In this document: one piece after another, positions 2,552-57,044 of the stretch
How the letters are laid out: each line of letters opens with the position of its first letter
How positions within the stretch are numbered: position 1 is the stretch's first letter
Assembly: GCA_030647355.1 (NCBI GenBank)
Contig: JAUSIS010000006.1
Location: forward strand, 90,221 to 154,220
Reading direction: 5' to 3'
Source of the DNA: a bacterium
GTDB taxonomy: Bacteria > Patescibacteriota > UBA1384 > VFKW01
Length of the DNA: 64,000 nt
Made by a program: the position numbers and the translations under genes
Notes under the pieces: generated by a model
What the model was told of the DNA's origin: nothing
Databases searched by the model: none
Seen by the model: the letters and a program-made list of their open reading frames with translations, nothing else

Positions 2552-5059
2552 ATGTTAGCCACTGGAACACCTTTAATAGTCTATCTTGTTGCGATCGCTT
2601 TACTGCTGGCGGTAGTGTGGTTTGTGGTGTGGCTTGTATTGCATGCCCGTGAGGGGAAAGCTCTTAAAAATGCATTAAGTTTAGTAACGATGCAGGTGAC
2701 TATACCGAAAGAGATGGAAAAATCTTCCGAAGAGGCGGCGGCACCGCCCAAGGATTTCAAGGAACTTTTGTCAGTAGCAGAGCAGATGTTCGCCAGTTTA
2801 CATAGTGTTTTTGAAAATGGATTGAATCCCTGGATTTATGGTCAGGATAGTCTGATTTTTGAAATAATATCTAATGTGGGGCAAATAGTATTTTATGTAT
2901 CTTGTCCAGAAGGCCATCAGAAGTTGGTTGAGAGGCAAATCCATAGTTTTTATCCCGATGCGCAGATTGATATGATTGACGGTCCGAATATTTTCAATAT
3001 GGAGCAGGGGGAAGTGGTAGGGGCTAGTCTGAAGCTTGGTAAGAGGTTCGTTTATCCGATTAAGACTTATAAGATGCTGGAAAGCGATCCCTTGAATGCT
3101 ATCTCGAATGCATTTTCAAAATTAGGGGAGGGCGCTAATGCGGCTTTACAGATTGTAATTCAGCCTGCTAACCAGCGTTGGCAAATTCATACTGCGACTG
3201 CGGCTCAAGCAGTTTCTGAAGGCAAACCGATGCACGCCAGTCTAACTCCGGCGGGTCGGGTGATGTATGGGGCATTTGATGCCGTAGGTTCGGCACTAAG
3301 CAGTGCCGGGAGTGCACAAAACCAAGCGGAGCAAAAGCAGAATGAAAGGGATAACAAAATTCATCGGATCACTCCTCAACAAGAGGAGTTAATGAAGTTA
3401 TTTAATGAGAAAGGAGCAAAGGTTGGCTTCCGGACGATTGTTCGAGTGATTTCCGCAGCTCCGGATAAAAATATGGCTTGGCAGAATTGCGATAATATTT
3501 TGGCGGCATTTTCCCAATATAATCTGCCACAAGGGAATTTTTTCCGAATTATCAAACCGAGGCAGTCGGTACTGCTAACTGATTATGTACTGAAATATTT
3601 TGGTCATTGCCCCAAGATGCTTCTTAATACGGAAGAATTAGCCTCAATGTTTCATTTTCCTAATAGAAATCTGGAGACACCCAATATATTGTGGTCGCAT
3701 TCTAAATTACTCCCACCGCCTGTAACTTTGCCAAAAGAAGGGGTAGTTATTGGAAAGAGCATATATAGAGGGGAGGAAGAATTGGTGAGGATGGGTATTG
3801 AAGATAGAAGAAGGCATTTGTTTATGATTGGAAAGACCGGTGTTGGTAAGACCACTTTCTTTGAGAATATGATTTTACAGGATATTCAAGAAGGAAAGGG
3901 GCTATGCTTCATTGATCCTTTGGGGGATGCAATTGAGAGTATTTTAAAGAAGATTCCCAAGGAAAGGTCAGATGATGTTATTTTGTTTGATCCCGGGGAT
4001 GTAGATTATCCGATGGGGTTGAATCTTTTGGAGTTCAAGAACACTGAAGAACGCGACTTTTTAGTGCAAGAATGCATCGAGATGTTTTATAAATTGTTTG
4101 ATCCCAACCGAACCGGAATGGTGGGACCGCAGTTTGAGCACTGGTTTAGGAATGCTGCTTTGACCGTAATGAGTGACTCGGATGGGGGGACATTGATTGA
4201 AATACCCCGATTGTTTACGGATGACAATTTTCGAAAGCAAAAGATTGCTAAAGTAACAGATCCGATTGTGCGAGCGTTTTGGGATGAGCAATTAGCTAAA
4301 ACTTCCGATTTTCATAAGTCGGAAATGTACAATTATTTTATTTCAAAATTTGGTCGTTTTATGACCAATGATTTAATGCGGAATATTATTGGGCAGAAGA
4401 AAAGCGCTTTTAATATGCGGGAAATTATGGATAGCGGAAAGATTTTACTGATTAATTTAGCTAAAGGCAAGATTGGAGAGATTAACTCTAATTTACTGGG
4501 AATGGTAATGGTTTCAAAGATACAGATTGCGGCGTTTAGCAGGGCTGATATACCTGAAGAGACGAGGAAGGATTTCTTTTTATATGTTGATGAGTTCCAG
4601 AATTTTACAACGGATACTTTTGCCACAATTTTGTCAGAAGCGAGGAAGTATCATCTTAGTTTGAATATTACCAATCAGTATATTGCTCAACTGACTGAAA
4701 AGATACGGGATGCCGTGATCGGTAATGCCGGTACCATTGTAATATATAGAATAGGTGCGGCTGATGCGGAATTTTTGCAAAAAGAGTTGCCAAACGTCAC
4801 AATAAACGATATGGTTAACCTTGACAGATTCCAGGTTTATGTTAAATTATTAATAAATTTGACTCCTTCAAAACCCTTTAGTATGAAAGGGATTAAATCT
4901 GAAGTGGTAGAAAATGAAAGAGTTGGAGAGGTTATTAGACAATTAGTAAGATTCAAGTATGCTAAGGAAAGAACAGAAGTAGAGAGAGTGGTTCTGGGTA
5001 AGAGTTCGCTGGCAGTATCATTTCCCGAGGAACCTGGTATATCTAAGCCGACTCTGTAG
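2552..5059 (+). CDS. Membrane-anchored TrwB/TraD/VirD4-like coupling-protein family ATPase (FtsK/HerA superfamily), paralog 1
   Basis: It has an N-terminal TM helix and the Walker A motif MIGKTGVGKTT, followed about 20 aa later by CFIDPLGDA (compare TrwB VIVDPNGD). The Walker B motif is LYVDEFQNF and an Arg/Gln motif RKYHLSLNITNQ follows. The SD AAGGAGA is 5 nt upstream. Confidence 0.75.
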   Translation: MLATGTPLIVYLVAIALLLAVVWFVVWLVLHAREGKALKNALSLVTMQVTIPKEMEKSSEEAAAPPKDFKELLSVAEQMFASLHSVFENGLNPWIYGQDSLIFEIISNVGQIVFYVSCPEGHQKLVERQIHSFYPDAQIDMIDGPNIFNMEQGEVVGASLKLGKRFVYPIKTYKMLESDPLNAISNAFSKLGEGANAALQIVIQPANQRWQIHTATAAQAVSEGKPMHASLTPAGRVMYGAFDAVGSALSSAGSAQNQAEQKQNERDNKIHRITPQQEELMKLFNEKGAKVGFRTIVRVISAAPDKNMAWQNCDNILAAFSQYNLPQGNFFRIIKPRQSVLLTDYVLKYFGHCPKMLLNTEELASMFHFPNRNLETPNILWSHSKLLPPPVTLPKEGVVIGKSIYRGEEELVRMGIEDRRRHLFMIGKTGVGKTTFFENMILQDIQEGKGLCFIDPLGDAIESILKKIPKERSDDVILFDPGDVDYPMGLNLLEFKNTEERDFLVQECIEMFYKLFDPNRTGMVGPQFEHWFRNAALTVMSDSDGGTLIEIPRLFTDDNFRKQKIAKVTDPIVRAFWDEQLAKTSDFHKSEMYNYFISKFGRFMTNDLMRNIIGQKKSAFNMREIMDSGKILLINLAKGKIGEINSNLLGMVMVSKIQIAAFSRADIPEETRKDFFLYVDEFQNFTTDTFATILSEARKYHLSLNITNQYIAQLTEKIRDAVIGNAGTIVIYRIGAADAEFLQKELPNVTINDMVNLDRFQVYVKLLINLTPSKPFSMKGIKSEVVENERVGEVIRQLVRFKYAKERTEVERVVLGKSSLAVSFPEEPGISKPTL

Positions 5060-5070
5060 GGAAGGAGCAA

Positions 5071-5598
5071 ATGGTAAGTAAAAAAACAACTGGAAACAAG
5101 GCAGTTAAGAAGCCAGAAAGTTTAGTTGACTTAAAGAAGGTCCTGGATAATGCGGAAAAGCAGATACGTATTGCCAAGCAGTTGCTTTTTAAAGAGTTAT
5201 ATTGCGAGAAGGCAAAATCGCTTGAGTCTAGTGATGCTTCGGTTGAGGGTGTATTTGATGGTGTTGATATGGTTGGGTCAGATAGGAAGACCTATAAGGT
5301 GCCATCGAATTATGCCAGTAAATCAAAGTTGGTAGCCGGCGATATAATGAAACTATCAATAGATGATAAGGGAGCATATACGTATAAACAGATTGGTCCA
5401 GTTCAGCGCCAGAGATTAGTTGGTGTCCTTTGTGAGAATGAAACCGGTTATTATGCAGAATGCGAAGGCAGAGTATTTAATGTATTAGCGGCGAGTGTTA
5501 CATATTTGAAGGCAAAGGATGGAGACAGGGTTACATTGTTGGTGGCACGAGATCAAGAATGTAATTGGGCAGCCATAGATAATGTAATTTCCAGTTGA
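5071..5598 (+). CDS. Hypothetical protein sandwiched between the two T4CP-like paralogs
   Basis: The SD GGGAAGGAG precedes the ATG. The stop overlaps the TTG start of the next gene by 4 nt (TTGA), indicating translational coupling. Confidence 0.6.
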   Translation: MVSKKTTGNKAVKKPESLVDLKKVLDNAEKQIRIAKQLLFKELYCEKAKSLESSDASVEGVFDGVDMVGSDRKTYKVPSNYASKSKLVAGDIMKLSIDDKGAYTYKQIGPVQRQRLVGVLCENETGYYAECEGRVFNVLAASVTYLKAKDGDRVTLLVARDQECNWAAIDNVISS

Positions 5599-8540
5599 GT
5601 GCGGAGGTGAATATTAATTTGTTTAATCCAATAATAATATTAATAATTGGTCTTATCTTACTTGTAGTGATTGGCTTTATTATTGCTAAAATTCTACGGG
5701 ATAAGAGAAAAATCGAGGAATTTTTAGAGAAAGAATATGTCATTCTCTCAATTATGGTGCCAAAGAATAATGAAAAAACTCCACTGGCGGCCGAACAGAT
5801 GTTTGCGTCTTTGCATGGGATTTTAAAACCACAGGAGGACAAGCAAGAGCATATTAGTTTTGAGATTGCTTCTCAAGATAAATTCACTCAATTTTATGTC
5901 TGTGTGCGTAAAGAGTTGAAAGATTTTGTAGAAGGACAGATTTATGCTCAATACCCTAGTGTAGAAATAAAAGAAGTTCCGGATTATACGGGTATAGAAT
6001 TAGAAGGGATGTCGTCATATGCGACGGAGCTGACTTTAAGTAAAGAGGGTGTTTATCCGATAAAAACTTTTGAAAGTTTTGAGGTTGATCCACTGGCAGC
6101 TATTACAGGTGTTTTGTCGAAGGTTCAGGGTGATGAGCGTATTTGGATACAGATGTTGACCCGTCCGGTTGACGATAGTTGGCAGGATAAAGGCGTACAG
6201 ATCGTAAAGAATATGCGCGACGGGGTAAAAGCTGGGGGAAGTATCGGTCAGGAAATTGCCAACGCGTTTTTAATGCTTTTTAGGGAGCTTCTGATGGCGG
6301 TAGTTTCACCTCCGAAGCCTGAGGAGAAGAAGAAAGAAGATAAGGAAAAGAAAGAGGATAAAAAGTTGCCGGCACCGGTTGAAACGGCGATGGCGGGAAT
6401 CGAGACAAAGATACAAAAGCTGGGTTTTGAGACTAAAATAAGAATTATGACCGTTGCGCATGATGATGAATCAGCCAAGGCGAAGATGTTAGCTGTGATT
6501 GGAGTTTTTCGGCAATTCAATACAACTAATTTAAATAGTTTTGTTTCAGGTAAAATCGTTGATGGCGAGGAGTTACTACCTGTGTTTCAGATGAGGCCGT
6601 TTGGAGACAGAGGATATATTTTTAATATTGAAGAATTAGCTTCTATTTATCATTTTCCTCATATGTCAGTGGAGACGCCATCTATTGTTTGGGCGGGTGT
6701 AAAGAAGGGAGAACCGCCGGCGCATCTGCCAATACAGGGGATTGTTGATGATGATCATATGACAATTCTAGCCCAGACTAATTTTCGGCATCGCGAGCAG
6801 AAGTTTGGTATTAAGATGATTGACCGTCGGTTGCATATGTATAGTATTGGTAAAACTGGAACAGGGAAGTCAACGTTGATGGAAAATATGATCTATGACG
6901 ATCTTATTCGCGGTAGGGGTCTGGCGGTTGTTGATCCTCATGGTCAGACAATTGATCATATATTGAAATTTATACCAGAAGAAAGAATGAAGGATGTAGT
7001 GTACCTAAATCCGGCTGATCAAAGTTGTCCAATAGGTTTTAATCTATTGGAAAGTGTTGAGGCGGACCAAAAGAACATTATGGCTTCTGGGCTCATGAGT
7101 GTGTTTCTGAAACTATGGGAAGGGACATTCAGTGCCAGAATGGAATATATATTAAGGAATACCATTTTAGCATTAATTGATTATCCTAGAGCGACGATGC
7201 TCGGAATCATGAGGGTTTTGAATGATAAAAATTACCGCAAGATGATTTTATCTTACGTGAAGGATCCTGTAATTCTGGATTTTTTCTATAATGAGTACGA
7301 GAAGTATGATCCTAAATTTCGTACGGAAGCAATTGCGCCTATTCAGAACAAAGTCGGGCAATTCTTGTCATCGAGTACGATCAGAAATATTGTAGGTCAA
7401 GAGAAATCTACGATCAATATCTCTGAAATCATGAATAATGGAAAGATTCTTTTGGTTGATTTATCGGTGGGAAAGATCGGTGAGGATAACTCAACACTAC
7501 TGGGTTCCATGATGATTACTAAAATCCAGCTGGCTGCGATGCAAAGGGCGCATGTGCCGGAAGAAGAGAGGCGTGACTTTTATCTATATGTGGATGAATT
7601 CCAAAATTTTGCCACCGAATCCTTTGCTACTATTCTGTCTGAAGCAAGAAAATATCATTTAAATCTAACTCTGACAAATCAATATACGGCGCAGGTTGAT
7701 GAGAAAGTCATGGATGCAATTATGGGTAATATTGGAACCATGGTGGCATTTAGAGTCGGGGCACCAGATGCCGATCTGCTTGCCAAAGAGTTTGAGCCGG
7801 TATTTGAGACGACAGATTTGATTAACCAGCCCAACAGACATATATATATCAAAATGGCAATTGACGGTGTGACTTGTCCGGCTTTTTCAGCCGATACATT
7901 GCCACCTCGAGTATTGGAAAAGAGTTTTGGGGATGAAGCAATCGAATTTTCCCAGACGACATATGGTAGGCCGCGCGATGAGGTTGAGCAGGAGATTAAT
8001 GATTATATGAGTGAGGATATTGAGGAAGCAGTCAAGGAACTTGATCCAGTTATGGCAGAACTTCGTCAGGAATATAAGGAGATATCTATTAAAGGCGGTT
8101 ATAAGTGGTATCTGGGGGCAGGGGAAGAGGGGACAGATGAGGAGCTTATGGAGGAACCTATTAATGACGACAATAACGCCGGGGCGGATGAAACAGATAG
8201 TTCAAACCTGGTAAGCGATGATACCGAGATGGTTGCTCAAGATAGTGTTGGTCAAGATATGCCACAGGATAGTAGTCACATTATCTCCAGTCAGCTGGCT
8301 AATAAAATTGCCAAGAAGGCTAGGAAGAGAAACAGAAATAAAGAAAAGAAGAAGGCATTATCTGCTCAAGAGCAATTAGCTAATCAGGGTGAACTTTCTC
8401 CAGTTCAGATATCTCCAGATAGTATTAATATGCCCCCAGAGTCTACGCAGTCTACCCATTTACCTCAAACAGGATCTCATCATGGGCACCATACGACTAT
8501 CCTCGAAGAAGGAGAGACCGTAGACCTGAAGAATAACTAA
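5595..8540 (+). CDS. Membrane-anchored TrwB/VirD4-like coupling-protein family ATPase, paralog 2, with a long acidic/basic low-complexity C-terminal tail
   Basis: The motifs are SIGKTGTGKST, AVVDPHGQT, LYVDEFQNF and RKYHLNLTLTNQ. It shares the N-terminal blocks EQMFASLH and YPIKT.E..E.DPL with paralog 1. A KPEEKKKEDKEKKEDKK insert is present. The C-terminal ~190 aa are disordered (DEEL..DDNNAGADETDSS...KKARKRNRNKEKKK). Confidence 0.75.
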   Translation: MSAEVNINLFNPIIILIIGLILLVVIGFIIAKILRDKRKIEEFLEKEYVILSIMVPKNNEKTPLAAEQMFASLHGILKPQEDKQEHISFEIASQDKFTQFYVCVRKELKDFVEGQIYAQYPSVEIKEVPDYTGIELEGMSSYATELTLSKEGVYPIKTFESFEVDPLAAITGVLSKVQGDERIWIQMLTRPVDDSWQDKGVQIVKNMRDGVKAGGSIGQEIANAFLMLFRELLMAVVSPPKPEEKKKEDKEKKEDKKLPAPVETAMAGIETKIQKLGFETKIRIMTVAHDDESAKAKMLAVIGVFRQFNTTNLNSFVSGKIVDGEELLPVFQMRPFGDRGYIFNIEELASIYHFPHMSVETPSIVWAGVKKGEPPAHLPIQGIVDDDHMTILAQTNFRHREQKFGIKMIDRRLHMYSIGKTGTGKSTLMENMIYDDLIRGRGLAVVDPHGQTIDHILKFIPEERMKDVVYLNPADQSCPIGFNLLESVEADQKNIMASGLMSVFLKLWEGTFSARMEYILRNTILALIDYPRATMLGIMRVLNDKNYRKMILSYVKDPVILDFFYNEYEKYDPKFRTEAIAPIQNKVGQFLSSSTIRNIVGQEKSTINISEIMNNGKILLVDLSVGKIGEDNSTLLGSMMITKIQLAAMQRAHVPEEERRDFYLYVDEFQNFATESFATILSEARKYHLNLTLTNQYTAQVDEKVMDAIMGNIGTMVAFRVGAPDADLLAKEFEPVFETTDLINQPNRHIYIKMAIDGVTCPAFSADTLPPRVLEKSFGDEAIEFSQTTYGRPRDEVEQEINDYMSEDIEEAVKELDPVMAELRQEYKEISIKGGYKWYLGAGEEGTDEELMEEPINDDNNAGADETDSSNLVSDDTEMVAQDSVGQDMPQDSSHIISSQLANKIAKKARKRNRNKEKKKALSAQEQLANQGELSPVQISPDSINMPPESTQSTHLPQTGSHHGHHTTILEEGETVDLKNN

Positions 8541-10835: not shown

Positions 10836-12128
10836 TTACATTCGGCTAAGTAGTTTTTCATATCTAGTGTTGGTAAATAGGCGTAGGAAAGTTCGTGTGA
10901 CGGTGATTGCGGTAAAGAGCGACACGACTATACCAATAGCTAATGTTAGAGCAAATCCTCGGACAAATCCGGTTGTTAAGATATATAGAATAAAACAAGT
11001 AATTAATGATGAGGCATTGGAATCACGAACGCTGTTCCAGGCGCGATTGAACCCTTCTTCTAGGGATTTATTAATGGGTTTGCCGGAGTGTATTTCTTCT
11101 TTCATTCTTTCAAATATGAGAATGTTCGCATCAACTGCCATACCGATTGAGAGAATAAAGCCGGCTATTCCAGCTAGTGTCAGGGTGACTGGAATATATT
11201 TGAAAATAGCTAAGGCAAATAATGAATAGAAAGTGAGGGCGATGACAGCAAGGAGGCCGGGAAATTTGTAGAAGGAGATCATGAAAATGGCAATAAGAAG
11301 TAAGCCGATAGCGCCGGCTATCAGGCTCTTTTTGACAGATTCGCTGCCTAATGTTGGACCAATAGTATTTTGACCGATTAGCTTGGCGGGAACTGGCAGG
11401 ATACCTTCGTTAAGCCGGTTGGAAAGCTTTTGGGCTTCGTCTTGGCTATCTAACCCTGTTATTTGGGCGTCACCGCTGGTAATTTCGCTTTGAACTGTGG
11501 GAGCGCTGACAATTTTGCCATCCAAGACTATCGCAACTCGCTTGTTGAGATTTTTCTTAGTGATTTCGGAAAATAAGGTAGTGCCCTCGCGGTTGAAGCG
11601 CATGCTTACAATAGGATCTGCACTGAGAGATTGTTGGTCAATATTTACCATGGCACTTTTCAACTGCCTACCAGTTAGCTTGGTGGGTGTCCAAGTACCG
11701 GGATATGGTTGACTTGTATAGTAATCGTTGAGAACGGTTCCATTTGGAGCTTCTTCCATAAATAAGAGTTCATAAGTAGCGCCGATTTTGTTTTTCGCGT
11801 CTTCAATGTTTTTAATTCCCGGCAGTTCGATAATAATTTTATCTTTTCCACTGGTTTGGATGTTTGATTCGGCAACGCCGAGCCCATTAACGCGTTGTTC
11901 AAATACATTTCTAAGGTTTGCCATATCTTTTGAATTGTTCCGGGAGCTTTTAAGATCTGCTTTATAGGTTAGTTGGGTGCCGCCCTTTAAATCGAGACCT
12001 TCATGAATTTTGAATTCTTTATGAAAAGTGCCTAATTTCCAATTGGGAGCTTGCGGTAAGTCTATTAATATGGCAATCGTAGCTAGGGCGATGATTATTG
12101 CAAAAGTAATCCAGATTCTTCTTCGCAT
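10836..12128 (-). CDS. secD: Protein-export membrane protein SecD
   Basis: It has an N-terminal TM, a periplasmic domain and a C-terminal 6-TM block (...AIGIVVSLFTAITVTR). It forms a secD-secF pair. Confidence 0.9.
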   Translation of the reverse strand: MRRRIWITFAIIIALATIAILIDLPQAPNWKLGTFHKEFKIHEGLDLKGGTQLTYKADLKSSRNNSKDMANLRNVFEQRVNGLGVAESNIQTSGKDKIIIELPGIKNIEDAKNKIGATYELLFMEEAPNGTVLNDYYTSQPYPGTWTPTKLTGRQLKSAMVNIDQQSLSADPIVSMRFNREGTTLFSEITKKNLNKRVAIVLDGKIVSAPTVQSEITSGDAQITGLDSQDEAQKLSNRLNEGILPVPAKLIGQNTIGPTLGSESVKKSLIAGAIGLLLIAIFMISFYKFPGLLAVIALTFYSLFALAIFKYIPVTLTLAGIAGFILSIGMAVDANILIFERMKEEIHSGKPINKSLEEGFNRAWNSVRDSNASSLITCFILYILTTGFVRGFALTLAIGIVVSLFTAITVTRTFLRLFTNTRYEKLLSRM

Positions 12129-17515: not shown

Positions 17516-18397
17516 CTATTTTTTTTGCCATTTGTATTTCCCTTTTGCGTCCGGTCGAATCTTCTGGATAGTTAGCATGACCTCTTCGCTTTTATCCAGG
17601 GAGACTTTGCGGATAGCTTCCCCATTTGTTCCGACTATCAGTTTTTCTGTGATGGTCATCACAAGAACTTTCTGGGAAGCCGGAAACATGATGGATTGGC
17701 CGTCGTCTTTGACCCCGACCTTTAACGAACGTGTTGTTGTTGAGGCCCTGGCTGTTTGAACACTGCCGCCAATCTCGACGACCTCAATTCCGACTTTGGC
17801 ACTGCTTTCCTGGGCGATGGAGACGCTGTCGGCGAGTTGGAATAGGGCTTCTGCGGAGTCGCCCTTGGCAAACATGTTGATCATCCTACTTACCGTGCCG
17901 ACCGGCTTGATCACTTCAGTTTGCTTTTTGGTGACTTTTGGCACGATCTTGAGGTAGTAGTTCCCGGTTCCTGTTGGGTGCCCTTTCTCATACATAGAGA
18001 TATGGATGTGATTGAGACCGATTCGAGAGTTGGTTGTGAACCGATTTTCCACACCAGTCTCACCAGTCAGCGAAGAATACCATTTCAGTGAATAATGGTG
18101 AGACTGGGAAATCACTGTGCCGGTGATTGGCATGAACACCTGAAACGAACGACTTCCAGTCCAGCGGTCCCATGTTCCCTGCCCCGAGACACCATATCCG
18201 GTGCCATTAGAGTTGTAGCGAGAGATGACGCCGATGCATTTGATGAGCAAATGCTGGGAGTTAACCAGTCGTATAGCATCCTCAAAAGTGAGCTTGTATA
18301 CGCTGGGTATTAGATCGACCTTGCGGTCGGCGGCGAATGCCGCGATGTTAAGTTGCGTGGAAACCAGTACTACCAGAATCCAAAATGACTTTCTCAA
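17516..18397 (-). CDS. Hypothetical secreted protein (signal peptide), GC-rich gene, controlled by GEMM-like leader copy 1
   Basis: TTG start with SD AGGAGGA 6 nt upstream. The N-terminus MRKSFWILVVLVSTQLNIAAFA is a signal peptide. GC content is clearly above the local background. Confidence 0.7.
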   Translation of the reverse strand: MRKSFWILVVLVSTQLNIAAFAADRKVDLIPSVYKLTFEDAIRLVNSQHLLIKCIGVISRYNSNGTGYGVSGQGTWDRWTGSRSFQVFMPITGTVISQSHHYSLKWYSSLTGETGVENRFTTNSRIGLNHIHISMYEKGHPTGTGNYYLKIVPKVTKKQTEVIKPVGTVSRMINMFAKGDSAEALFQLADSVSIAQESSAKVGIEVVEIGGSVQTARASTTTRSLKVGVKDDGQSIMFPASQKVLVMTITEKLIVGTNGEAIRKVSLDKSEEVMLTIQKIRPDAKGKYKWQKK

Positions 18398-18453
18398 AAC
18401 GAGATCCTCCTAGAGAGATATTTGTCAACAAATCTAGGAATTATGCCGATATC

Positions 18454-18699
18454 AAAAAAACTTCTTCCGAAGCTTCTTTGTGAGTACGTATTGAAGTTCG
18501 GCAACCCGGCGACCATTCCAGCTCTTTCAATGAAAGGGCTGGATTAGGCCCGTGGTTTTGCCCCGATGTCGGATTTTGTCCGGATCGGAGTCCCTTATCC
18601 TTCCGAAGAAGGGTGATGGGACGTCATCGCCTTTCGACGACTTTGCCTTTATCGACTTGTTAACAGGATTATTTTAGCACTTTTGCGCCTGTTTGTCAA
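18454..18699 (-). promoter_or_regulatory. GEMM (c-di-GMP-I)-like structured 5' leader, copy 1: promoter, conserved domain and intrinsic terminator
   Basis: On the minus strand the -35 TTGACA (18694-18699) is followed by 17 nt and the -10 TAAAAT (18671-18676). A conserved domain (about 18499-18654) is roughly 90% identical to copy 2. The terminator AAGAAGCUUCGGAAGAAG plus U7 lies at 18454-18479. The SD and TTG start of the 17516..18397 gene follow. Confidence 0.5.
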
Positions 18700-21274: not shown

Positions 21275-22014
21275 TTAAACCACTGGTACAATACCGCGTG
21301 TTGTTGATGATATAAATGCTTCGGTAGCTTCTTTTAATTCTATAAGATTCACAGGTCGCTCGGCGATTTTGAAATCTTGTGCCAGCTTTAATATTAAATT
21401 TCGCCTCGTGCCCTGAAGAATGTCTTTTTTGGGAGTTATTAATTCGTTACCTCGGAAAATAAAGAAATTGAAAGTTGTGCCTTCGAGAATTTTATCGTGC
21501 CAAGTATAAATAATGTCATAGGCATTTTTCTTTTTTATCAACTTTTGCGGCTTAGCATCGTAAGATAGTTAGTGGATTTTGCTTCTGGCTTTGTGCGTAA
21601 GTACTCGTGGGTGATTAGTTTGACGCCTTTTTGATAGATTTCTGGAGCATGGATGGGCAGTGAAGCGGCGGTGACGAAGAAGGTGGGGGTTTTGCTGTCG
21701 AAGTGTGTGCCGTCCGGGCTTTCGCCCCCGGAAAGAAAGAGTCGAATTCCAGCATCGGGAAGATTATTTTTTTGGATTAATTTTAATATTAAACTTTCGA
21801 TTTGGTGGTTGGTGAGAGGGATTCTCAGGTTTAATTTTTTTGCGGAATTGGCAAAGCGTTTGAGATGTTTGTCCAAGAGCAATGGTTTGCTGTTGTGGCT
21901 TCGCAGGAAATCAAAAACGGCGTAGCCGCGCAGCAAGCCGATATCATTAATTGATATTTGGGCATTATGAACGGGGATGATTTTGCCGTTTGAATAGCAG
22001 TATTGTGGTTTCAT
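21275..22014 (-). pseudogene. Class IV (branched-chain/D-amino-acid) aminotransferase split by a frameshift at an A6/T6 homopolymer
   Basis: The N-terminal fragment (21538..22014) ends ...KSTNYLTMLSRKS*. The C-terminal fragment (21275..21541) continues ...KKKNAYDIIYTWHDKILEGTTFNFFIF...TRGIVPV. Together they cover the full fold-type IV aminotransferase. The two frames overlap 4 nt at the run ttttttatca (21531-21540). Confidence 0.7.
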
Positions 22015-22065: not shown

Positions 22066-23115
22066 TTAAATATTTGAAGTGCTATCGGCGGACAACTTAT
22101 TTGATGGTACTCTTTTAATGAAATGATCTAAGATGTCATCAAGGATCGGCAAGCTGGTGAGTGTGCCGTTAATAATGATTAGATAGGATAGTTTGTTAAA
22201 TTGGTTGAATATAATTAATAGTAGAATTACTACCATAATAAGAATAGTACCTGTAATTATCTTTATTTTATCTTCATCGACAGGATCTGCTATACACTGG
22301 CCAGTATACACAATGTCTGTTCGGAATTGTTTAATTGCTCGAATAGGATTGAAGTGACGACTAGGTACAAGTTGCCAAAGAAGGTTTAAGAAAGACAGTA
22401 TATTTGTCACCCTCAATGCAATAAATATATTGAATAAAAGATAAGAAGCGGCCATTCCATAAATGAAGAGTTCTTTGTATAAGTTATCTGGTCGGGCTAT
22501 TACATTGAAGTGATTATAAAGGCTGTAGCTTAAATATGAAAGGTATGCGATATTAGCTACCCAGAAAAATATTAGCAGTCTTTTAAGTAAGGCGGGAATC
22601 TGCTTTTGATAGAATCTTGAATAAATCCAAATTGTGCAAATGATGAAAAAAGCTATTATGTCTATTGCTAGTGTCGTCTTCGAGAGAATGGAAATTGTCA
22701 ATGATAATATAGCGAGCTGAAGGATGCTTGTTTTGCTTATATTAGATAGATAATATTGGTAAATAGAGACGGAAAGACCTACGGAAAATGCAAGCAAGAC
22801 GGCGCCAATGAAGTAATATTCTTCGAAGGCAAGGTAGCCTCTTGTATCTATAAAAGTTATTCCCAGGATGGCAGCGAGAAAAATTGCTATTGGATACCAC
22901 CAAGACAATTTTAAATCTTTAACTCCCGGGTTATTCCTCTTTACACTCCAAAAGAGGAGATAACTTGCGAGGAGAGATCCGGCTGCTAAATATATATACT
23001 CAATTCGTTGCTCAAATAATATACTGATTGCCATAGTGGTAGTTAGAAAAATTAGTATCCCTAGTAGCAGTTTGCCTATAAATGTAAAAATATTATTTAC
23101 TTTATTCATTTTCAT
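22066..23115 (-). CDS. Hypothetical polytopic membrane protein (about 10 TM)
   Basis: Continuous hydrophobic helices; no catalytic motif recognised. Confidence 0.65.
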   Translation of the reverse strand: MKMNKVNNIFTFIGKLLLGILIFLTTTMAISILFEQRIEYIYLAAGSLLASYLLFWSVKRNNPGVKDLKLSWWYPIAIFLAAILGITFIDTRGYLAFEEYYFIGAVLLAFSVGLSVSIYQYYLSNISKTSILQLAILSLTISILSKTTLAIDIIAFFIICTIWIYSRFYQKQIPALLKRLLIFFWVANIAYLSYLSYSLYNHFNVIARPDNLYKELFIYGMAASYLLFNIFIALRVTNILSFLNLLWQLVPSRHFNPIRAIKQFRTDIVYTGQCIADPVDEDKIKIITGTILIMVVILLLIIFNQFNKLSYLIIINGTLTSLPILDDILDHFIKRVPSNKLSADSTSNI

Positions 23116-23214: not shown

Positions 23215-23682
23215 TTAATCGATTGCCCAGATATTAACATAGGCTTCGATTATTAGTCGCATAGCGGCGATAGCGGAGTTGCGGGTGTGGAGGCAGAGAT
23301 TGGCAAGCCGAGCTTCAAATTCTTCATAGAACTCGGGCGAGTGCTCCCAGTCAATGTAACGTGCGAGCATGTTTCGCTGAAATTCTGTATCGCAGAGGCG
23401 GTCAAGATATGTATCGTACTGCGCCCACTCGACGGTCGGGATTCTGCCCCCATTTGCTGACCAGAGGGCTAGGGCAAACATGTTGACGACACGCAGGAAG
23501 CTGTCGTGTTCATATTGGCCGCCCGAGCCATCGCTAATCCCGCTTGCACCTATTGCGCATTCTTTTGCTAGGCCCATGAGCCAAGAGTGGAAACGGGGCG
23601 AAGTGCCCTTGATGAGATCGAGGGCATTGAGCCTGCTGTCTTTTGCGGTCTTGGTGTCTTTCTTGTCAATTTTAAGCGACAT
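23215..23682 (-). CDS. Hypothetical protein (GC-rich), controlled by GEMM-like leader copy 2
   Basis: ATG start with SD GGGAGGA upstream; no domain recognised. Confidence 0.6.
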   Translation of the reverse strand: MSLKIDKKDTKTAKDSRLNALDLIKGTSPRFHSWLMGLAKECAIGASGISDGSGGQYEHDSFLRVVNMFALALWSANGGRIPTVEWAQYDTYLDRLCDTEFQRNMLARYIDWEHSPEFYEEFEARLANLCLHTRNSAIAAMRLIIEAYVNIWAID

Positions 23683-23734: not shown

Positions 23735-23963
23735 GAAACAAATACACCAACCGGAGCTGGTGTATTTGCGAGAACCATCCGGCAACCCGGCTGCCATCCA
23801 AGCTTTTTCAACGAAAGAGCTGGATTAGGCCCGTGGCTTTGCCCCGATGTCGGATTTTGTCCGGATCGGAGTCCCCTGAGGAACGTCATCGTCTTTCGAC
23901 GACTTTGCCTTTATCGGGTTTTTAATATAAGCGTATTTTAGCACAAAATATGGGATTTGTCAA
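23735..23963 (-). promoter_or_regulatory. GEMM (c-di-GMP-I)-like structured 5' leader, copy 2: promoter, conserved domain and intrinsic terminator
   Basis: On the minus strand the -35 TTGACA (23958-23963) is followed by 17 nt and TG-n-TAAAAT (23935-23940). The conserved domain is at 23779-23918. The terminator-like hairpin AAAUACACCAGCUCCGGUUGGUGUAUUU plus GUUUC is at 23735-23768. The SD and ATG of 23215..23682 follow. Confidence 0.5.
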
Positions 23964-24067
23964 TCCTCTATGTGATTTTATTTATGCGGGATGGTGGCAT
24001 GAAAAAAGCCCCCGAAGGGGCATGGTGAAATGTCGGATTACTACTTTACCTTAGGGATGCCTGAGGT

Positions 24068-31253: not shown

Positions 31254-32687
31254 TTAATCTCCTACTTGGGTATCGGTTTGTTTGAGTTCTTTGCCCTTAG
31301 CTTCTTCGCTTAGGCGGATGTGAACATCTTTGAGTTGTTGTTGGGAAACTTGAGAAGGGGCGCCCATCATCAAATCTCTGGCGTCGCCATTTTTGGGGAA
31401 AGCGATAACTTCACGAATTACATCCTCGCCGGATAAAATTGCGCAGATGCGATCAATGCCGGGGGCAATACCTCCATGAGGTGGTGCACCATATTCAAAG
31501 GCTTCTAGCATGTGGCCGAAGCGGCGCTTCTTTTCTTCGTCAGAAACCCCTAGTAGTTTGAAAATTTTGTCTTGTAATTCGTGCTGGTGAATTCTGATGG
31601 AGCCGCTGGCAATTTCGTAGCCATTCAATACTAAGTCATAACAATAAGCGTTCACTTTAGTCGGATCGCTTTCAAGTTTATCCATATCTTCCGCTTTTGG
31701 CATGGTGAATGGATGATGAGAGCTGACAAGCTTTTTTTCCGTTTGGGAATATTTGAAAAGTGGAAAATCAATTATCCATGAGAATGCTAGTTCGTCTTTA
31801 TTTTCTTTATCTTTTCGCAAGTCGGGTTTATCATTTTTGTATTTTTCCATTGATTCGGCGTATGAAATGCGAGGGAAAGGAATTTTTGCGATTTTCTTTT
31901 CAGGGCATAACTTCTTGACCATCTCAATCATCATCGGTTCAATCAGGTCGAATATGCCTTCTTGTTTTATAAAACTCATTTCCAAGTCTAGCTGGGTGAA
32001 TTCGGATTGTCTGTCCCCTCTCTGGTCTTCGTCTCGGAAACAACGGGCAATTTGAAAGTAACGTTCTATGCCGCCGACCATTAGCAGTTGCTTGAATTGT
32101 TGAGGGCTTTGTGGTAAGACATAAAATTCACCAGGATAAAGGCGGGCAGGAACAATATATTCTCTGGCTCCTTCTGGTGTAGATTTTGTTAGATAGGGTG
32201 TTTCGATTTCCCGAAAATCTTCTTTGTATAAATATTCACGGATGAATTTGACGACGTTGTGGCGTAGTGTAATATTGTTTGACATGCGTTCTGTGCGCAG
32301 GTCCAGATAGCGATATTTTAATCTTAATTCTTCGTCAATTCCTTTGGTGTCTTTGTCGATTTCAAACGGAGGAGTTTTAGAGGTATTGAGGATCTCCAAT
32401 TCGGCGGCTTCCATCTCGACTTTGCCAGTGGGTAGATTGGGATTTACTAGCTTTTCTGGCCGAGCTTTAACGGTGCCGGTAATTTCAACTACCCACTCAG
32501 GCCGAAGATCTTTTATTTTTTCGTATGCTTTGGAGCCGGGAACAATAACAATTTGAAGGACGCCACTTCTATCTCTTAGATCGATAAAAACAATTTTGCC
32601 GTGATCGCGTCTGTTATTTACCCAGCCGCTGACTGTTACTTCTTTGCCAATATTTTTGGTGGTCTCGGCGATCATTGTTCTTTTCAT
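31254..32687 (-). CDS. Class IIb aminoacyl-tRNA synthetase: aspartyl- (archaeal/non-discriminating type) or asparaginyl-tRNA ligase
   Basis: An N-terminal OB fold is followed by motif 2 FRDEDQRGDRQSEFTQLDLEMSF and motif 3 GGIAPGIDRICAIL. The 477-aa length cannot separate AspRS type 2 from AsnRS without an alignment. Confidence 0.85.
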   Translation of the reverse strand: MKRTMIAETTKNIGKEVTVSGWVNNRRDHGKIVFIDLRDRSGVLQIVIVPGSKAYEKIKDLRPEWVVEITGTVKARPEKLVNPNLPTGKVEMEAAELEILNTSKTPPFEIDKDTKGIDEELRLKYRYLDLRTERMSNNITLRHNVVKFIREYLYKEDFREIETPYLTKSTPEGAREYIVPARLYPGEFYVLPQSPQQFKQLLMVGGIERYFQIARCFRDEDQRGDRQSEFTQLDLEMSFIKQEGIFDLIEPMMIEMVKKLCPEKKIAKIPFPRISYAESMEKYKNDKPDLRKDKENKDELAFSWIIDFPLFKYSQTEKKLVSSHHPFTMPKAEDMDKLESDPTKVNAYCYDLVLNGYEIASGSIRIHQHELQDKIFKLLGVSDEEKKRRFGHMLEAFEYGAPPHGGIAPGIDRICAILSGEDVIREVIAFPKNGDARDLMMGAPSQVSQQQLKDVHIRLSEEAKGKELKQTDTQVGD

Positions 32688-55638: not shown

Positions 55639-57044
55639 TGTTAGCGCAATATAGTAATGTCCGCTTTTAGCAATTTAGAAATGTCCCTTTTTTGGTGCAC
55701 AATGACAAACTTTTTCCATGGATGATTTGCTTTCGGCGTCCAGGGAATTTGCGGATTTTCTTTCTCCTTTCTTTTTACAATTATTAGTTTTTGCGGTCTT
55801 TGGGCTATTTCTTTAAAGTTCAGAGTGCTCTTGCCTTGGTGGATGGTTATTGTTCCGTCTAGGTGTTGCCAGACTTCAACTGTTTCTTTGGGATAGAGGA
55901 TGGTCGGTTGTTTTGGAAGTAGTTGTAACCATCTGGTTTTGTAGGCAGTGGTGTAGTCGTGATTAATCTTCCGCTCCTCTTTGATGCAGAAAATACTATT
56001 AAGATCGTATCCTTCAATACTTTGATGCAGATTAGTTTTACTTTGGGGCTCTTCGGCGAATCTGGCATTATGCAAGGCAATATATTGTTCATTTAAGTAC
56101 TTGTTAGCCTCCTCAATTGACGAGATACCCTTAAGTCTTAATTCTTTCACCAGACGATCCTGGAGAGTGCCAAAGAGACGTTCTACCCGTCCTTTGGCCT
56201 GAGGGCTTCTGGCATAGATCGGAGCAATATCCAGCTCTTCTAGTGCTCGGCCATACTGGGTTAATTTGTCATCGTTAGGGTTATTGAGATTTACTTTGTA
56301 AACTCCGCCACGATCCATATAGAAGGCCGCCGGCTTACCATGAGTTTCTAGATAAGTCCTAGTTGTTCTCATTAGATTTTCCGTCGTCTCCCCGGTCGTG
56401 AATTCCAGATAAACTATCCGGCTGGTGGCATCATCGATGAAGGCAATTAGGGTGCATTTAGACGCCTTGTTTTCAAACCAGGCATGAACAGAGCCATCTA
56501 GCTGGACTAGCTCGCCATAGCATTCCTTGCGCTCGCGCATTTGCCGTGCTTGGGCTTTTCTTTTTTTAAATGTCCATAGTGATTCGTTGATCATTTTTAA
56601 TCTCAAAGATTCGTGATTGACCAGTATATGGTGGTTTTCTTGCAATTTCTCCGAGGCAAAGGTTGGCCCGAAGTCGGCGTATTTATCTTTGACCAAGGTA
56701 ATTATTTCTGTCCAGAACTCATCGGCAAAACGATGGTTGCTTGGTTTCCCCCGGCTTTTATTAACCAGGCTTATTTCTCCGGATAGGCGATAGCTCTTTA
56801 ATTTTCGTCTTATCTGACGGGTACTTAGATTTAATATCTTAGCGGCTTCATGTTGTTTCATTTGTTTTTCCTTTAATTTCTCAAATACATTAATCTGTCC
56901 TATTTCCCTACGGCTCATATTGAATGTCTCCACTTTACCTTTCATCCCACCATTTAAGTTAACTAAACATCATAACCTAAAAGCCGGAGAAAGAGGACAT
57001 TCCTATGTTGCTCATTAATAGGACATTACTATATTGCGCTAACA
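55639..57044 (-). mobile_element. Complete insertion sequence (~1.4 kb) with perfect 24-bp terminal inverted repeats
   Basis: IRL is tgttagcgcaatatagtaatgtcc (55639-55662) and IRR is ggacattactatattgcgctaaca (57021-57044), an exact reverse complement. Subterminal (t/a)aatgtcc repeats are present. A single DDE transposase ORF fills the element. Confidence 0.8.
55641..56945 (-). CDS. DDE transposase (N-terminal HTH plus rve/integrase core; IS481- or ISNCY-like)
   Basis: The catalytic residues lie in ...VQLDGSVHAWF..., ...FIDDATSR... and ...QAKGRVERLFGTLQDRL (D, D, E). The N-terminal HTH reads ...AAKILNLSTRQIRRKL. Confidence 0.85.
   Translation of the reverse strand: MKGKVETFNMSRREIGQINVFEKLKEKQMKQHEAAKILNLSTRQIRRKLKSYRLSGEISLVNKSRGKPSNHRFADEFWTEIITLVKDKYADFGPTFASEKLQENHHILVNHESLRLKMINESLWTFKKRKAQARQMRERKECYGELVQLDGSVHAWFENKASKCTLIAFIDDATSRIVYLEFTTGETTENLMRTTRTYLETHGKPAAFYMDRGGVYKVNLNNPNDDKLTQYGRALEELDIAPIYARSPQAKGRVERLFGTLQDRLVKELRLKGISSIEEANKYLNEQYIALHNARFAEEPQSKTNLHQSIEGYDLNSIFCIKEERKINHDYTTAYKTRWLQLLPKQPTILYPKETVEVWQHLDGTITIHQGKSTLNFKEIAQRPQKLIIVKRKEKENPQIPWTPKANHPWKKFVIVHQKRDISKLLKADITILR

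Follow-up and report, generated by a model that had tools for sequence, protein, structure and literature searches.

Two predicted c-di-GMP-I riboswitches with a recurrent two-hairpin insertion precede orphan genes in a Berkelbacteria-like bacterium

The minus strand of the 64-kb stretch of bacterial DNA analysed here (contig JAUSIS010000006.1, positions 90,221 to 154,220; hereafter the window, with coordinates counted from its first letter) holds two leaders, one running from position 18699 to 18454 (copy 1) and the other, 5.3 kb away, from 23963 to 23735 (copy 2). Each comprises a promoter, a structured domain and a putative terminator, and each is followed by a gene for an orphan protein (Table 1). 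An earlier note, made from the sequence alone, had described them as paralogous, GEMM-like riboswitch leaders. That description is upheld by matches to the Rfam family RF01051 above its gathering score, by the presence of the ligand-contacting nucleotides and by the setting in a 5'-untranslated region (5'-UTR). Since both matches exceed the gathering score, the class itself is an already known one, that of the c-di-GMP-I (GEMM-I) riboswitches, which have been recognized since 2007-2008. Taken as a whole, we read the locus as a pair of paralogous GEMM-I riboswitches with their own promoters, orphan-gene targets and predicted OFF expression platforms, and assign this reading a probability of about 0.75.

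Across their putative aptamers the two copies agree at 129 of 142 aligned bases (90.8%), or at 80% if the 19-nt indel of a variable hairpin is counted; from the -35 box to the aptamer they are 60% identical and over the 80 nt 3' of the aptamer 50% identical, and we therefore regard the flanks as unrelated. The 64 kb contain precisely two occurrences of one 26-nt hairpin, CCGAUCCGGACAAAAUCCGACAUCGG, against a chance expectation of 0, and the folding energies of both domains are much lower than those of shuffled sequences (z = -6.6 for copy 1 and -5.8 for copy 2). A permissive scan of the window detected no further copies. The earlier note had placed the element on the minus strand with a repeat at 23779-23918, estimated the identity of the domains at about 90% and found the sequence beyond them unrelated; coordinates and values were confirmed on checking, and its picture of a conserved aptamer joined to non-homologous expression platforms stands. 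Its statement that the differences in stems are compensatory applies in the strict sense only to P1, the helix closing the aptamer, where double changes are found (AAGUCG/CGA[A]CUU in copy 1 versus AACCCG/CGG[AUG]GUU in copy 2). Most of the other changes are one-sided and keep the pair (U.G to U-A, C-G to U.G, A-U to G.U); they include the exchange it had singled out in the GNRA hairpin, where a G-to-A change in copy 2 converts U.G into U-A. The shared promoter architecture (TTGACA, 17 nt, TG-c-TAAAAT) was likewise found as described, and the two promoters are the two best promoter-like sites between 17400 and 24200, each matching 11/12 consensus positions plus the TG extension. A strong promoter of its own, of the sigma-70 type, is predicted to drive each riboswitch. 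The upstream gene, for a 128-amino-acid membrane protein, ends in a clean terminator (24008-24021, minus strand; GCCCC-UUCG-GGGGC and then U6) just ahead of the copy 2 promoter, so that copy 2 forms an independent transcription unit.

The assignment to GEMM-I rests on the Rfam model and on published features of the motif. Searched with cmscan, copy 1 (18497-18657) matched RF01051 with 47.3 bits (E = 3.9e-6) and copy 2 (23778-23919) with 48.4 bits, in both cases over the full model (1-87) with a stretch skipped (62 and 43 nt, respectively); the gathering score is 35 bits, and related families of the clan scored lower. As criteria we used the features given in PMC1950547 (Weinberg 2007) and PMC4744006. 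According to the latter, the ligand is contacted by G20, A47 and C92 in the numbering of the Vibrio cholerae aptamer Vc2, and an interhelical Watson-Crick pair, C44-G83, is universal in GEMM. In the former, the first hairpin starts with a 2-bp stem, which a 3-nt internal loop (AAA/GAC) separates from a 6-bp stem with a GNRA loop, and an AAA linker leads to the second hairpin. In copy 1 the cmscan alignment places the three contacts at G18647, A18559 and C18501; in copy 2 they fall at G23909 (G20) and C23782 (C92), the A47 equivalent being the first A of a linker identical to that of copy 1. The C92 equivalent is carried by a 3' GCC. The equivalent of C44-G83 is present as well, with the C of GAC pairing with a G that bulges from the 3' strand of P3, the second hairpin (GGU-CG-CCG in copy 1, GGC-AG-CCG in copy 2). 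A GAAA tetraloop and an 11-nt-type receptor can be read from the sequence (CCUAAU in both copies, opposite AAUGG in copy 1 and GAUGG in copy 2), and the distal 4 bp of P1 belong to the minimum free energy (MFE) fold of copy 2. Promoter, terminator, antiterminator, Shine-Dalgarno sequence and gene follow on one strand, as expected of a 5'-UTR element. Position 20 is a G in both copies, not the A20 that distinguishes GEMM-Ib. All elements of the first hairpin and the AAA linker are present, and the one departure is that two extra hairpins intervene before the 2-bp stem closes. On this evidence both leaders are very probably c-di-GMP-I riboswitches, and binding of c-di-GMP is predicted.

The extra hairpins, here called H2 and H3, together measure 61 nt in copy 1 and 42 nt in copy 2 and lie between GAC and the 2-bp stem. 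As the GC that closes this stem comes only after H2 and H3, the insertion falls between the equivalents of Vc2 C44 and G45, a site that, judged from the sequence and the MFE folds, adjoins the ligand pocket; the AAA/GAC internal loop of the first hairpin, P2, is thereby modelled as a four-way junction. The base of H2 follows GUYCC...GGGAC in both copies, with a UUCG-capped distal extension in copy 1 and none in copy 2. The variable hairpin of the earlier note is indeed expanded in copy 1, yet it does not belong to canonical GEMM-I and is one part of this insertion; together with the adjoining conserved hairpin it makes up the stretch that the Rfam model has to skip.

The insertion recurs elsewhere. 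With one genome per species, a pattern scan yielded 19 loci, and a scan of JGI metagenomes yielded 10; the insertion layout was found in 15 distinct sequences besides the two window copies: five metagenome-assembled genomes (MAGs) of Candidatus Omnitrophota, three Planctomycetia MAGs, six distinct metagenome sequences and L034, an ortholog discussed below. All share a 6-bp GNRA hairpin followed by GAC, GGC or CAC, two hairpins and GCAAARCC. Exactly two end-to-end hairpins were obtained for 15 of 16 insertions, as compared with 121 of 3200 dinucleotide shuffles (3.8%). Because a direct MAFFT alignment (A2) put the variable hairpins out of register, covariation was assessed in a trimmed, equal-length alignment of 17 sequences (A4) restricted to the conserved core plus the outermost five pairs of each of H2 and H3. 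Its covariation score was 0.737, against 0.213 for shuffles; none of 500 shuffles reached 0.737, and slid controls remained at or below 0.125. All six P2 pairs covary, with 100% of cells paired, 97.6% of the P3 helix cells are paired, and double changes occur at 4/5 basal pairs of H2 and 5/5 of H3. The equivalents of G20 (a G throughout), A47 and C92 are unchanged and the C44-G83 equivalent is C:G in 17/17 insertion-bearing sequences. Four of the 15 other sequences (L002, L021, L028 and L034) score below the Rfam gathering threshold. Eight further pattern hits (L003, L008, L009, L012, L013, L015, L017 and L026) were rejected as insertion variants, being canonical GEMM-I aptamers behind an extra upstream AAAGGCAAA, and L006, L007, L014 and L016 were assigned to neither layout. 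No description of an insertion or four-way junction in GEMM-I was found in the literature searched, whose incomplete coverage makes this weak evidence of novelty; the insertion is apparently an undescribed structural variant of GEMM-I.

Two of the contigs recovered in this way hold more than one element. On a metagenome contig, an insertion-bearing GEMM-I (L023, 11090-11210) is followed about 110 nt downstream by a second GEMM-I (11320-11429) in tandem. An Omnitrophota contig, L004, carries two near-identical insertion-bearing copies at 188-280 and 5149-5241, 5 kb apart and one at each contig end, a spacing that recalls that of the two window copies.

Leaders of the GEMM-I type also precede the genes for all three recovered relatives of the 293-amino-acid protein encoded downstream of copy 1. 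In L031, whose protein is 54% identical, the aptamer is canonical and lacks an insert (1073-1158; RF01051, 85.8 bits). In L034 (43% identity) the aptamer, recognized by eye at 1455-1650, shares the C44/G45 insertion site of the window copies, with far larger H2 and H3 that total 102 nt. In L032 (50% identity; 2297-2440; 37 bits) the first hairpin is canonical and two hairpins are inserted instead in the 5' strand of the second; this leader also holds a second sequence resembling the 3' end of P3, which may allow alternative folds. Copy 1 and these three leaders have in common the promoter layout, the leader start GTTAACAA..CGATAAAGGCAA, a terminator of the form (A)AGCUUCGGAAGAAG(C/U)U(n), the Shine-Dalgarno sequence and the TTG start. 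The presence of a GEMM-I leader in 3/3 relatives indicates that the link between riboswitch and gene has been conserved while peripheral helices come and go.

Beyond P1 each window leader continues into a putative intrinsic terminator that lies 13-20 nt past P1 and does not overlap the aptamer. For copy 1 the earlier note had correctly pointed to a hairpin followed by U7, but the sequence it gave for the hairpin, AAGAAGCUUCGGAAGAAG, is itself no inverted repeat. The CUUC-GGAA-GAAG hairpin alone is worth -2.1 kcal/mol and, with pairing of the A-tract to U7, -8.5 to -9.6 kcal/mol. The copy 2 terminator has a 13-bp stem of -18.6 kcal/mol followed by AUUUGUUUC. A simple terminator scan lists neither, that of copy 1 because it is too GC-poor. 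The 3' strand of P1 is complementary to the terminator 5' arm in both copies, and for this reason OFF switches are predicted. In copy 1 the CCGAACUUC:GAAGCUUCGG duplex amounts to -10.4 to -11.5 kcal/mol, a value matched by 0.3% of random window 12-mers; in copy 2 CCGGAUGGU:ACCAGCUCCGG amounts to -11.4 kcal/mol, matched by 1.1-1.2% of random 12-mers. When the platform is truncated before the terminator 3' arm, the antiterminator is the MFE structure in both copies (-7.3 to -7.5 kcal/mol in copy 1), and it is the MFE structure of the entire platform in L031 (-11.9), L032 (-16.6) and L034 (-13.9 kcal/mol). This antiterminator design is common to both window copies despite their unrelated sequences, and it corresponds to the usual architecture of OFF switches. 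At low c-di-GMP, the P1 3' strand would pair with the 5' arm and loop of the terminator, RNA polymerase would read through, allowing synthesis of the secreted protein in the case of copy 1 and of the 155-amino-acid protein in that of copy 2; at high c-di-GMP, the ligand would lock P1, the antiterminator would be blocked, and the terminator hairpin would stop transcription. We lean, by a modest degree, towards this OFF direction acting through termination.

Table 1. Features of the two leaders and their genes, in transcriptional order for each copy (all on the minus strand).
Feature	Coordinates	Description	Basis
Copy 1 promoter	18671-18699	-35 TTGACA (18694-18699), 17-nt spacer, extended -10 TGcTAAAAT (18671-18679)	Read from sequence
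Copy 1 P1 5' strand	18653-18658	AAGUCG; partner CGA[A]CUU at 18494-18500	Assigned by eye
Copy 1 GGCAAA	18642-18647	G18647, Vc2 G20 equivalent; G18646 and C18645, 5' strand of 2-bp stem; following AAA, 5' side of internal loop; invariant in 17/17	cmscan alignment
Copy 1 P2 hairpin	18626-18641	GUCGUC-GAAA-GGCGAU; 6-bp stem, GNRA (GAAA) tetraloop	Read from sequence
Copy 1 GAC	18623-18625	3' side of internal loop; C18623, Vc2 C44 equivalent, pairs with G83 equivalent	
Copy 1 H2	18590-18622	Base GUCCC...GGGAC; distal CCUUC-UUCG-GAAGG	MFE folds
Copy 1 H3	18563-18588	CCGAU-CCGGACAAAAUCCGAC-AUCGG; same sequence in copy 2; found exactly twice in the window	MFE folds
Copy 1 G45-C46 equivalents and AAA linker	18557-18561	G45 and C46 equivalents (18561, 18560) close the 2-bp stem; A18559, Vc2 A47 equivalent, predicted to intercalate in the ligand; invariant in 17/17	cmscan alignment
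Copy 1 P3 hairpin	18503-18557	Contains 11-nt-type receptor	cmscan alignment and MFE
Copy 1 antiterminator, 5' half (predicted)	18493-18501	CCGAACUUC; C92 equivalent (18501) and P1 3' strand	
Copy 1 antiterminator, 3' half (predicted)	18467-18476	GAAGCUUCGG; terminator 5' arm and half of its loop	
Copy 1 intrinsic terminator (putative)	18453-18480	Core GCUUC-GGAA-GAAGU, upstream A-tract, U7 at 18454-18460	
Copy 1 Shine-Dalgarno and start	18405-18412; 18395-18397	UAGGAGGA; TTG	Read from sequence
Copy 1 gene	17516-18397	293-aa secreted beta-rich protein with signal peptide; tiny orphan family	
Copy 2 promoter	23935-23963	TTGACA, 17 nt, TGcTAAAAT	
Copy 2 aptamer	23778-23919	P2 23888-23903, H2 23871-23884, H3 23844-23869, P3 23784-23838	
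Copy 2 expression platform	23735-23782	Terminator with U-rich tail 23735-23768	
Copy 2 antiterminator (predicted)	23774-23782; 23751-23761	5' half CCGGAUGGU (with P1 3' strand); 3' half ACCAGCUCCGG	
Copy 2 gene	23215-23682	155-aa orphan protein	
Gene after copy 2 gene	22066-23115	349-aa membrane protein	

It is unlikely, in our estimate, that these are genuine GEMM-I riboswitches working instead as ON switches or mainly at the level of translation, through a hairpin covering the Shine-Dalgarno sequence (UCCUAGA...UCUAGGA) or through a long-range helix. ON logic is the way we read four insertion-bearing relatives (L002, L011, L018 and L025) where terminator 5' arm and aptamer 3' half overlap, an arrangement described as common in GEMM (PMC1950547, Weinberg 2007), and the insertion is accordingly not tied to one switch direction. 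The window terminators, by contrast, stand clear of their aptamers, and the sole significant alternative partner of the terminator 5' arm is the P1 3' strand, which corresponds to OFF logic. The MFE fold of copy 1 does sequester the Shine-Dalgarno sequence, but the hairpin that covers it is arranged differently in the orthologs; similarly, a helix of 11-16 bp between the leader start and the region past the terminator is kept in copy 1, L032 and L034, but is not significant for copy 2.

The components of these two structures are as follows. The 5' end of the copy 1 leader, GUUAACAAGUC (18654-18664, overlapping the P1 5' strand), is complementary to GAUUUGUUGAC (18424-18434), just past the terminator; the resulting helix would enclose the whole riboswitch and could form only in read-through transcripts. 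Its energy is -15.5 kcal/mol in the window (equalled by 2.8% of random 23-mers), -16.9 kcal/mol in L032 (2290-2305 with 2466-2480) and -17.3 kcal/mol in L034 (1446-1460 with 1684-1698), there are double changes at two positions, and the same pairing can be recognized by eye in L031. This helix explains the motif TTGACAAAT past the terminator, which we had considered as a second promoter and rejected as such, since it has no usable -10 box and is better explained as a strand of the helix. UCCUAGA at 18433-18439 is complementary to UCUAGGA, a stretch overlapping the Shine-Dalgarno sequence; the hairpin that the two can form spans 18405-18439, encloses the 3' strand of the long-range helix and could, as modelled, add a layer of translational control in copy 1. 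Finally, the H2 extension found only in copy 1 (18595-18612) shares CUUCGGAAG with the copy 1 terminator (18461-18476), its CUUCUUC being complementary to the terminator GAAGAAG, which may be either a coincidence or an additional alternative pairing.

The genes downstream are different in the two cases, and each riboswitch is predicted to regulate its own orphan gene. For the copy 1 gene, the Shine-Dalgarno sequence AGGAGGA and the TTG start proposed in the earlier note are supported by the conservation of TTG and signal peptide in the orthologs. The NCBI call for this gene is 244 amino acids (Q7S37_01795); the 293-amino-acid version is better supported because its TTG stands 7 nt after AGGAGGA, it begins with a signal peptide, and in the three orthologs the TTG is retained and the alignment starts at residue 2. 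The protein has no Pfam match, and its family comprises five related proteins among 1.84 billion representatives. An AlphaFold2 model built from 6 sequences (pLDDT 59.5) shows a confident, beta-rich N-terminal domain, with residues 166-241 unmodelled, and a Foldseek search against the PDB yielded generic beta-sandwiches only (TM about 0.2), none of them below E = 1e-3. That the protein is an aerolysin-like pore former was a guess from its sequence that neither Pfam nor AlphaFold2 nor Foldseek supports, and we have dropped it. The 155-amino-acid protein likewise has no Pfam match, and its only match in 5.8 billion proteins is itself.

Given the position of the insertion, its possible effect on ligand recognition has to be considered. 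That the motif has become a four-way-junction subclass of GEMM-I, in which the extra helices change affinity, specificity or folding kinetics and are not neutral decoration, seems to us quite unlikely. Still less probable is a change or loss of ligand specificity, whereby the remodelled site would sense another dinucleotide or the leaders would act as ligand-independent attenuators. Such a change might be suspected because the most conserved internal loop of the motif is broken up by an insertion that the Rfam model can only skip, because the four relatives named above fall below the gathering score, and because the 64-kb window shows no genes for c-di-GMP enzymes. Yet position 20 is not the A of the cGAMP-sensing GEMM-Ib, and A47, C92, C44-G83 and the tetraloop with its receptor have been retained, either without change or with covariation, throughout 17 sequences that span at least three phyla, which argues for an unchanged pocket under selection; moreover, L031 controls a homologous gene by a canonical, insert-free aptamer, suggesting the same signal. 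The idea of a dispersed DNA repeat or mobile element, to which the two roughly 91% identical copies and the ISNCY transposase and TraD-like genes of the window might lend some colour, has a negligible probability and fails on the presence in the window of two copies only, as opposed to the many dispersed ones that the earlier note had named as grounds for giving up its view that this is no simple DNA repeat, each set precisely downstream of a promoter and ahead of a terminator, Shine-Dalgarno sequence and gene, without terminal repeats, with a match to Rfam and with covariation that points to RNA structure.

Several observations nevertheless count against our reading of the locus as two c-di-GMP-I riboswitches with OFF platforms. 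Without ligand the terminator state is favoured at equilibrium in both copies (-76.4 versus -73.4 kcal/mol in copy 1, -76.8 versus -65.4 kcal/mol in copy 2), and read-through must therefore rest on co-transcriptional kinetics. The core of the copy 1 terminator is weak, with 5 bp including one G.U pair and only the -2.1 kcal/mol given above. In alignment A4, the share of paired cells (98.4%) is biased upward because the boundaries of H2 and H3 were taken from the MFE fold of each sequence, a choice that leaves the diversity of pair types unaffected. An insertion beside the binding pocket could alter or abolish binding. Finally, a regular-expression search found no GGDEF, EAL or HD-GYP motif in a real open reading frame (ORF) of the 64-kb window, although so small a part of a genome is uninformative in this respect.

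Comparison with known systems places the window RNAs within a familiar scaffold. Like Vc2, the type example of RF01051, they have a two-hairpin aptamer closed by P1, the nucleotides G20, A47 and C92, the C44-G83 pair, the GAAA tetraloop with an 11-nt-type receptor and the AAA linker, and like other RF01051 members they occupy a 5'-UTR ahead of genes for extracellular or membrane proteins. They differ from canonical members in the insertion of 42 or 61 nt, by which a four-way junction replaces the 3x3 internal loop and the Rfam score drops from about 86 bits (the canonical ortholog L031) to about 47 bits, and from Vc2 in their host, a Berkelbacteria-like bacterium of the candidate phyla radiation (CPR). 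GEMM-Ib, which senses 3',3'-cGAMP in Geobacter, shares the scaffold and the Rfam clan (CL00126) but has an A at position 20, where the window RNAs have a G, and lacks the two-hairpin insertion. The c-di-GMP-I aptamers of Bacillus have the canonical two-hairpin fold. These also lie in the 5'-UTRs of their target genes, with several paralogs per genome before genes for surface or secreted proteins, much as in the window. Bc1 is reported to have a long platform with two rho-independent terminators (PMC11218506), and Bc2 to lie upstream of a collagen adhesion protein gene (PMC4933901). The window platforms are short and are predicted to use a P1-3'-strand antiterminator (OFF).

The host was placed by its aspartyl-tRNA synthetase (AspRS), which shares 74-77% identity with proteins that carry the name Candidatus Berkelbacteria or Patescibacteria group; from this likeness we take the organism to be a CPR bacterium close to Berkelbacteria. 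The enzyme (31254-32687, minus strand) has 477 amino acids and matches the NCBIfam bacterial model of about 590 amino acids in two separate stretches; its relatives bearing Berkelbacteria or Patescibacteria names are almost all of 477 amino acids, so a shortened form appears to be common to the lineage. Elsewhere in the window, adjacent ORFs of 158 and 88 amino acids (21275-22014, minus strand) overlap by 4 nt and both match PF01063 (aminotransferase class IV); these matches were made in the identical Logan contig L030, and the pair has the appearance of one gene that was split or frameshifted. Close together at 2552-8540 (plus strand), two genes encode large proteins (835 and 981 amino acids) that give weak matches to coupling proteins of the TraD/VirD4 type, and an ISNCY-family transposase is found at 55641-56945 (minus strand). 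The coupling-protein-like genes and the transposase suggest that this small CPR genome contains mobile elements.

What the present analysis adds to a known class is a recurrent, covarying insertion at C44/G45, predicted OFF platforms of one design in unrelated sequence, and a CPR host. As the insertion shows, a four-way junction can be accommodated in the backbone between C44 and G45; the insertion also lowers Rfam scores, so that some members are missed at the gathering threshold. The insert-free leader of L031 and the insert-bearing leaders of the window and L034, standing before orthologous genes, offer a natural comparison for the effects of peripheral helices on binding and switching. No paper linking c-di-GMP riboswitches with CPR or Patescibacteria was found in the literature searched, the coverage of which was incomplete; the two leaders hint that c-di-GMP signalling operates in Berkelbacteria-like CPR bacteria. 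If the extra helices do define a functional subclass, second-messenger sensing at the RNA level would control lineage-specific secreted proteins in an organism with a reduced genome, and if that genome in addition lacked cyclases of its own, the c-di-GMP sensed might come from a host or a neighbouring cell. As far as annotation is concerned, the c-di-GMP regulon of this uncultured CPR bacterium gains two predicted c-di-GMP-I riboswitches and, with them, two orphan genes.

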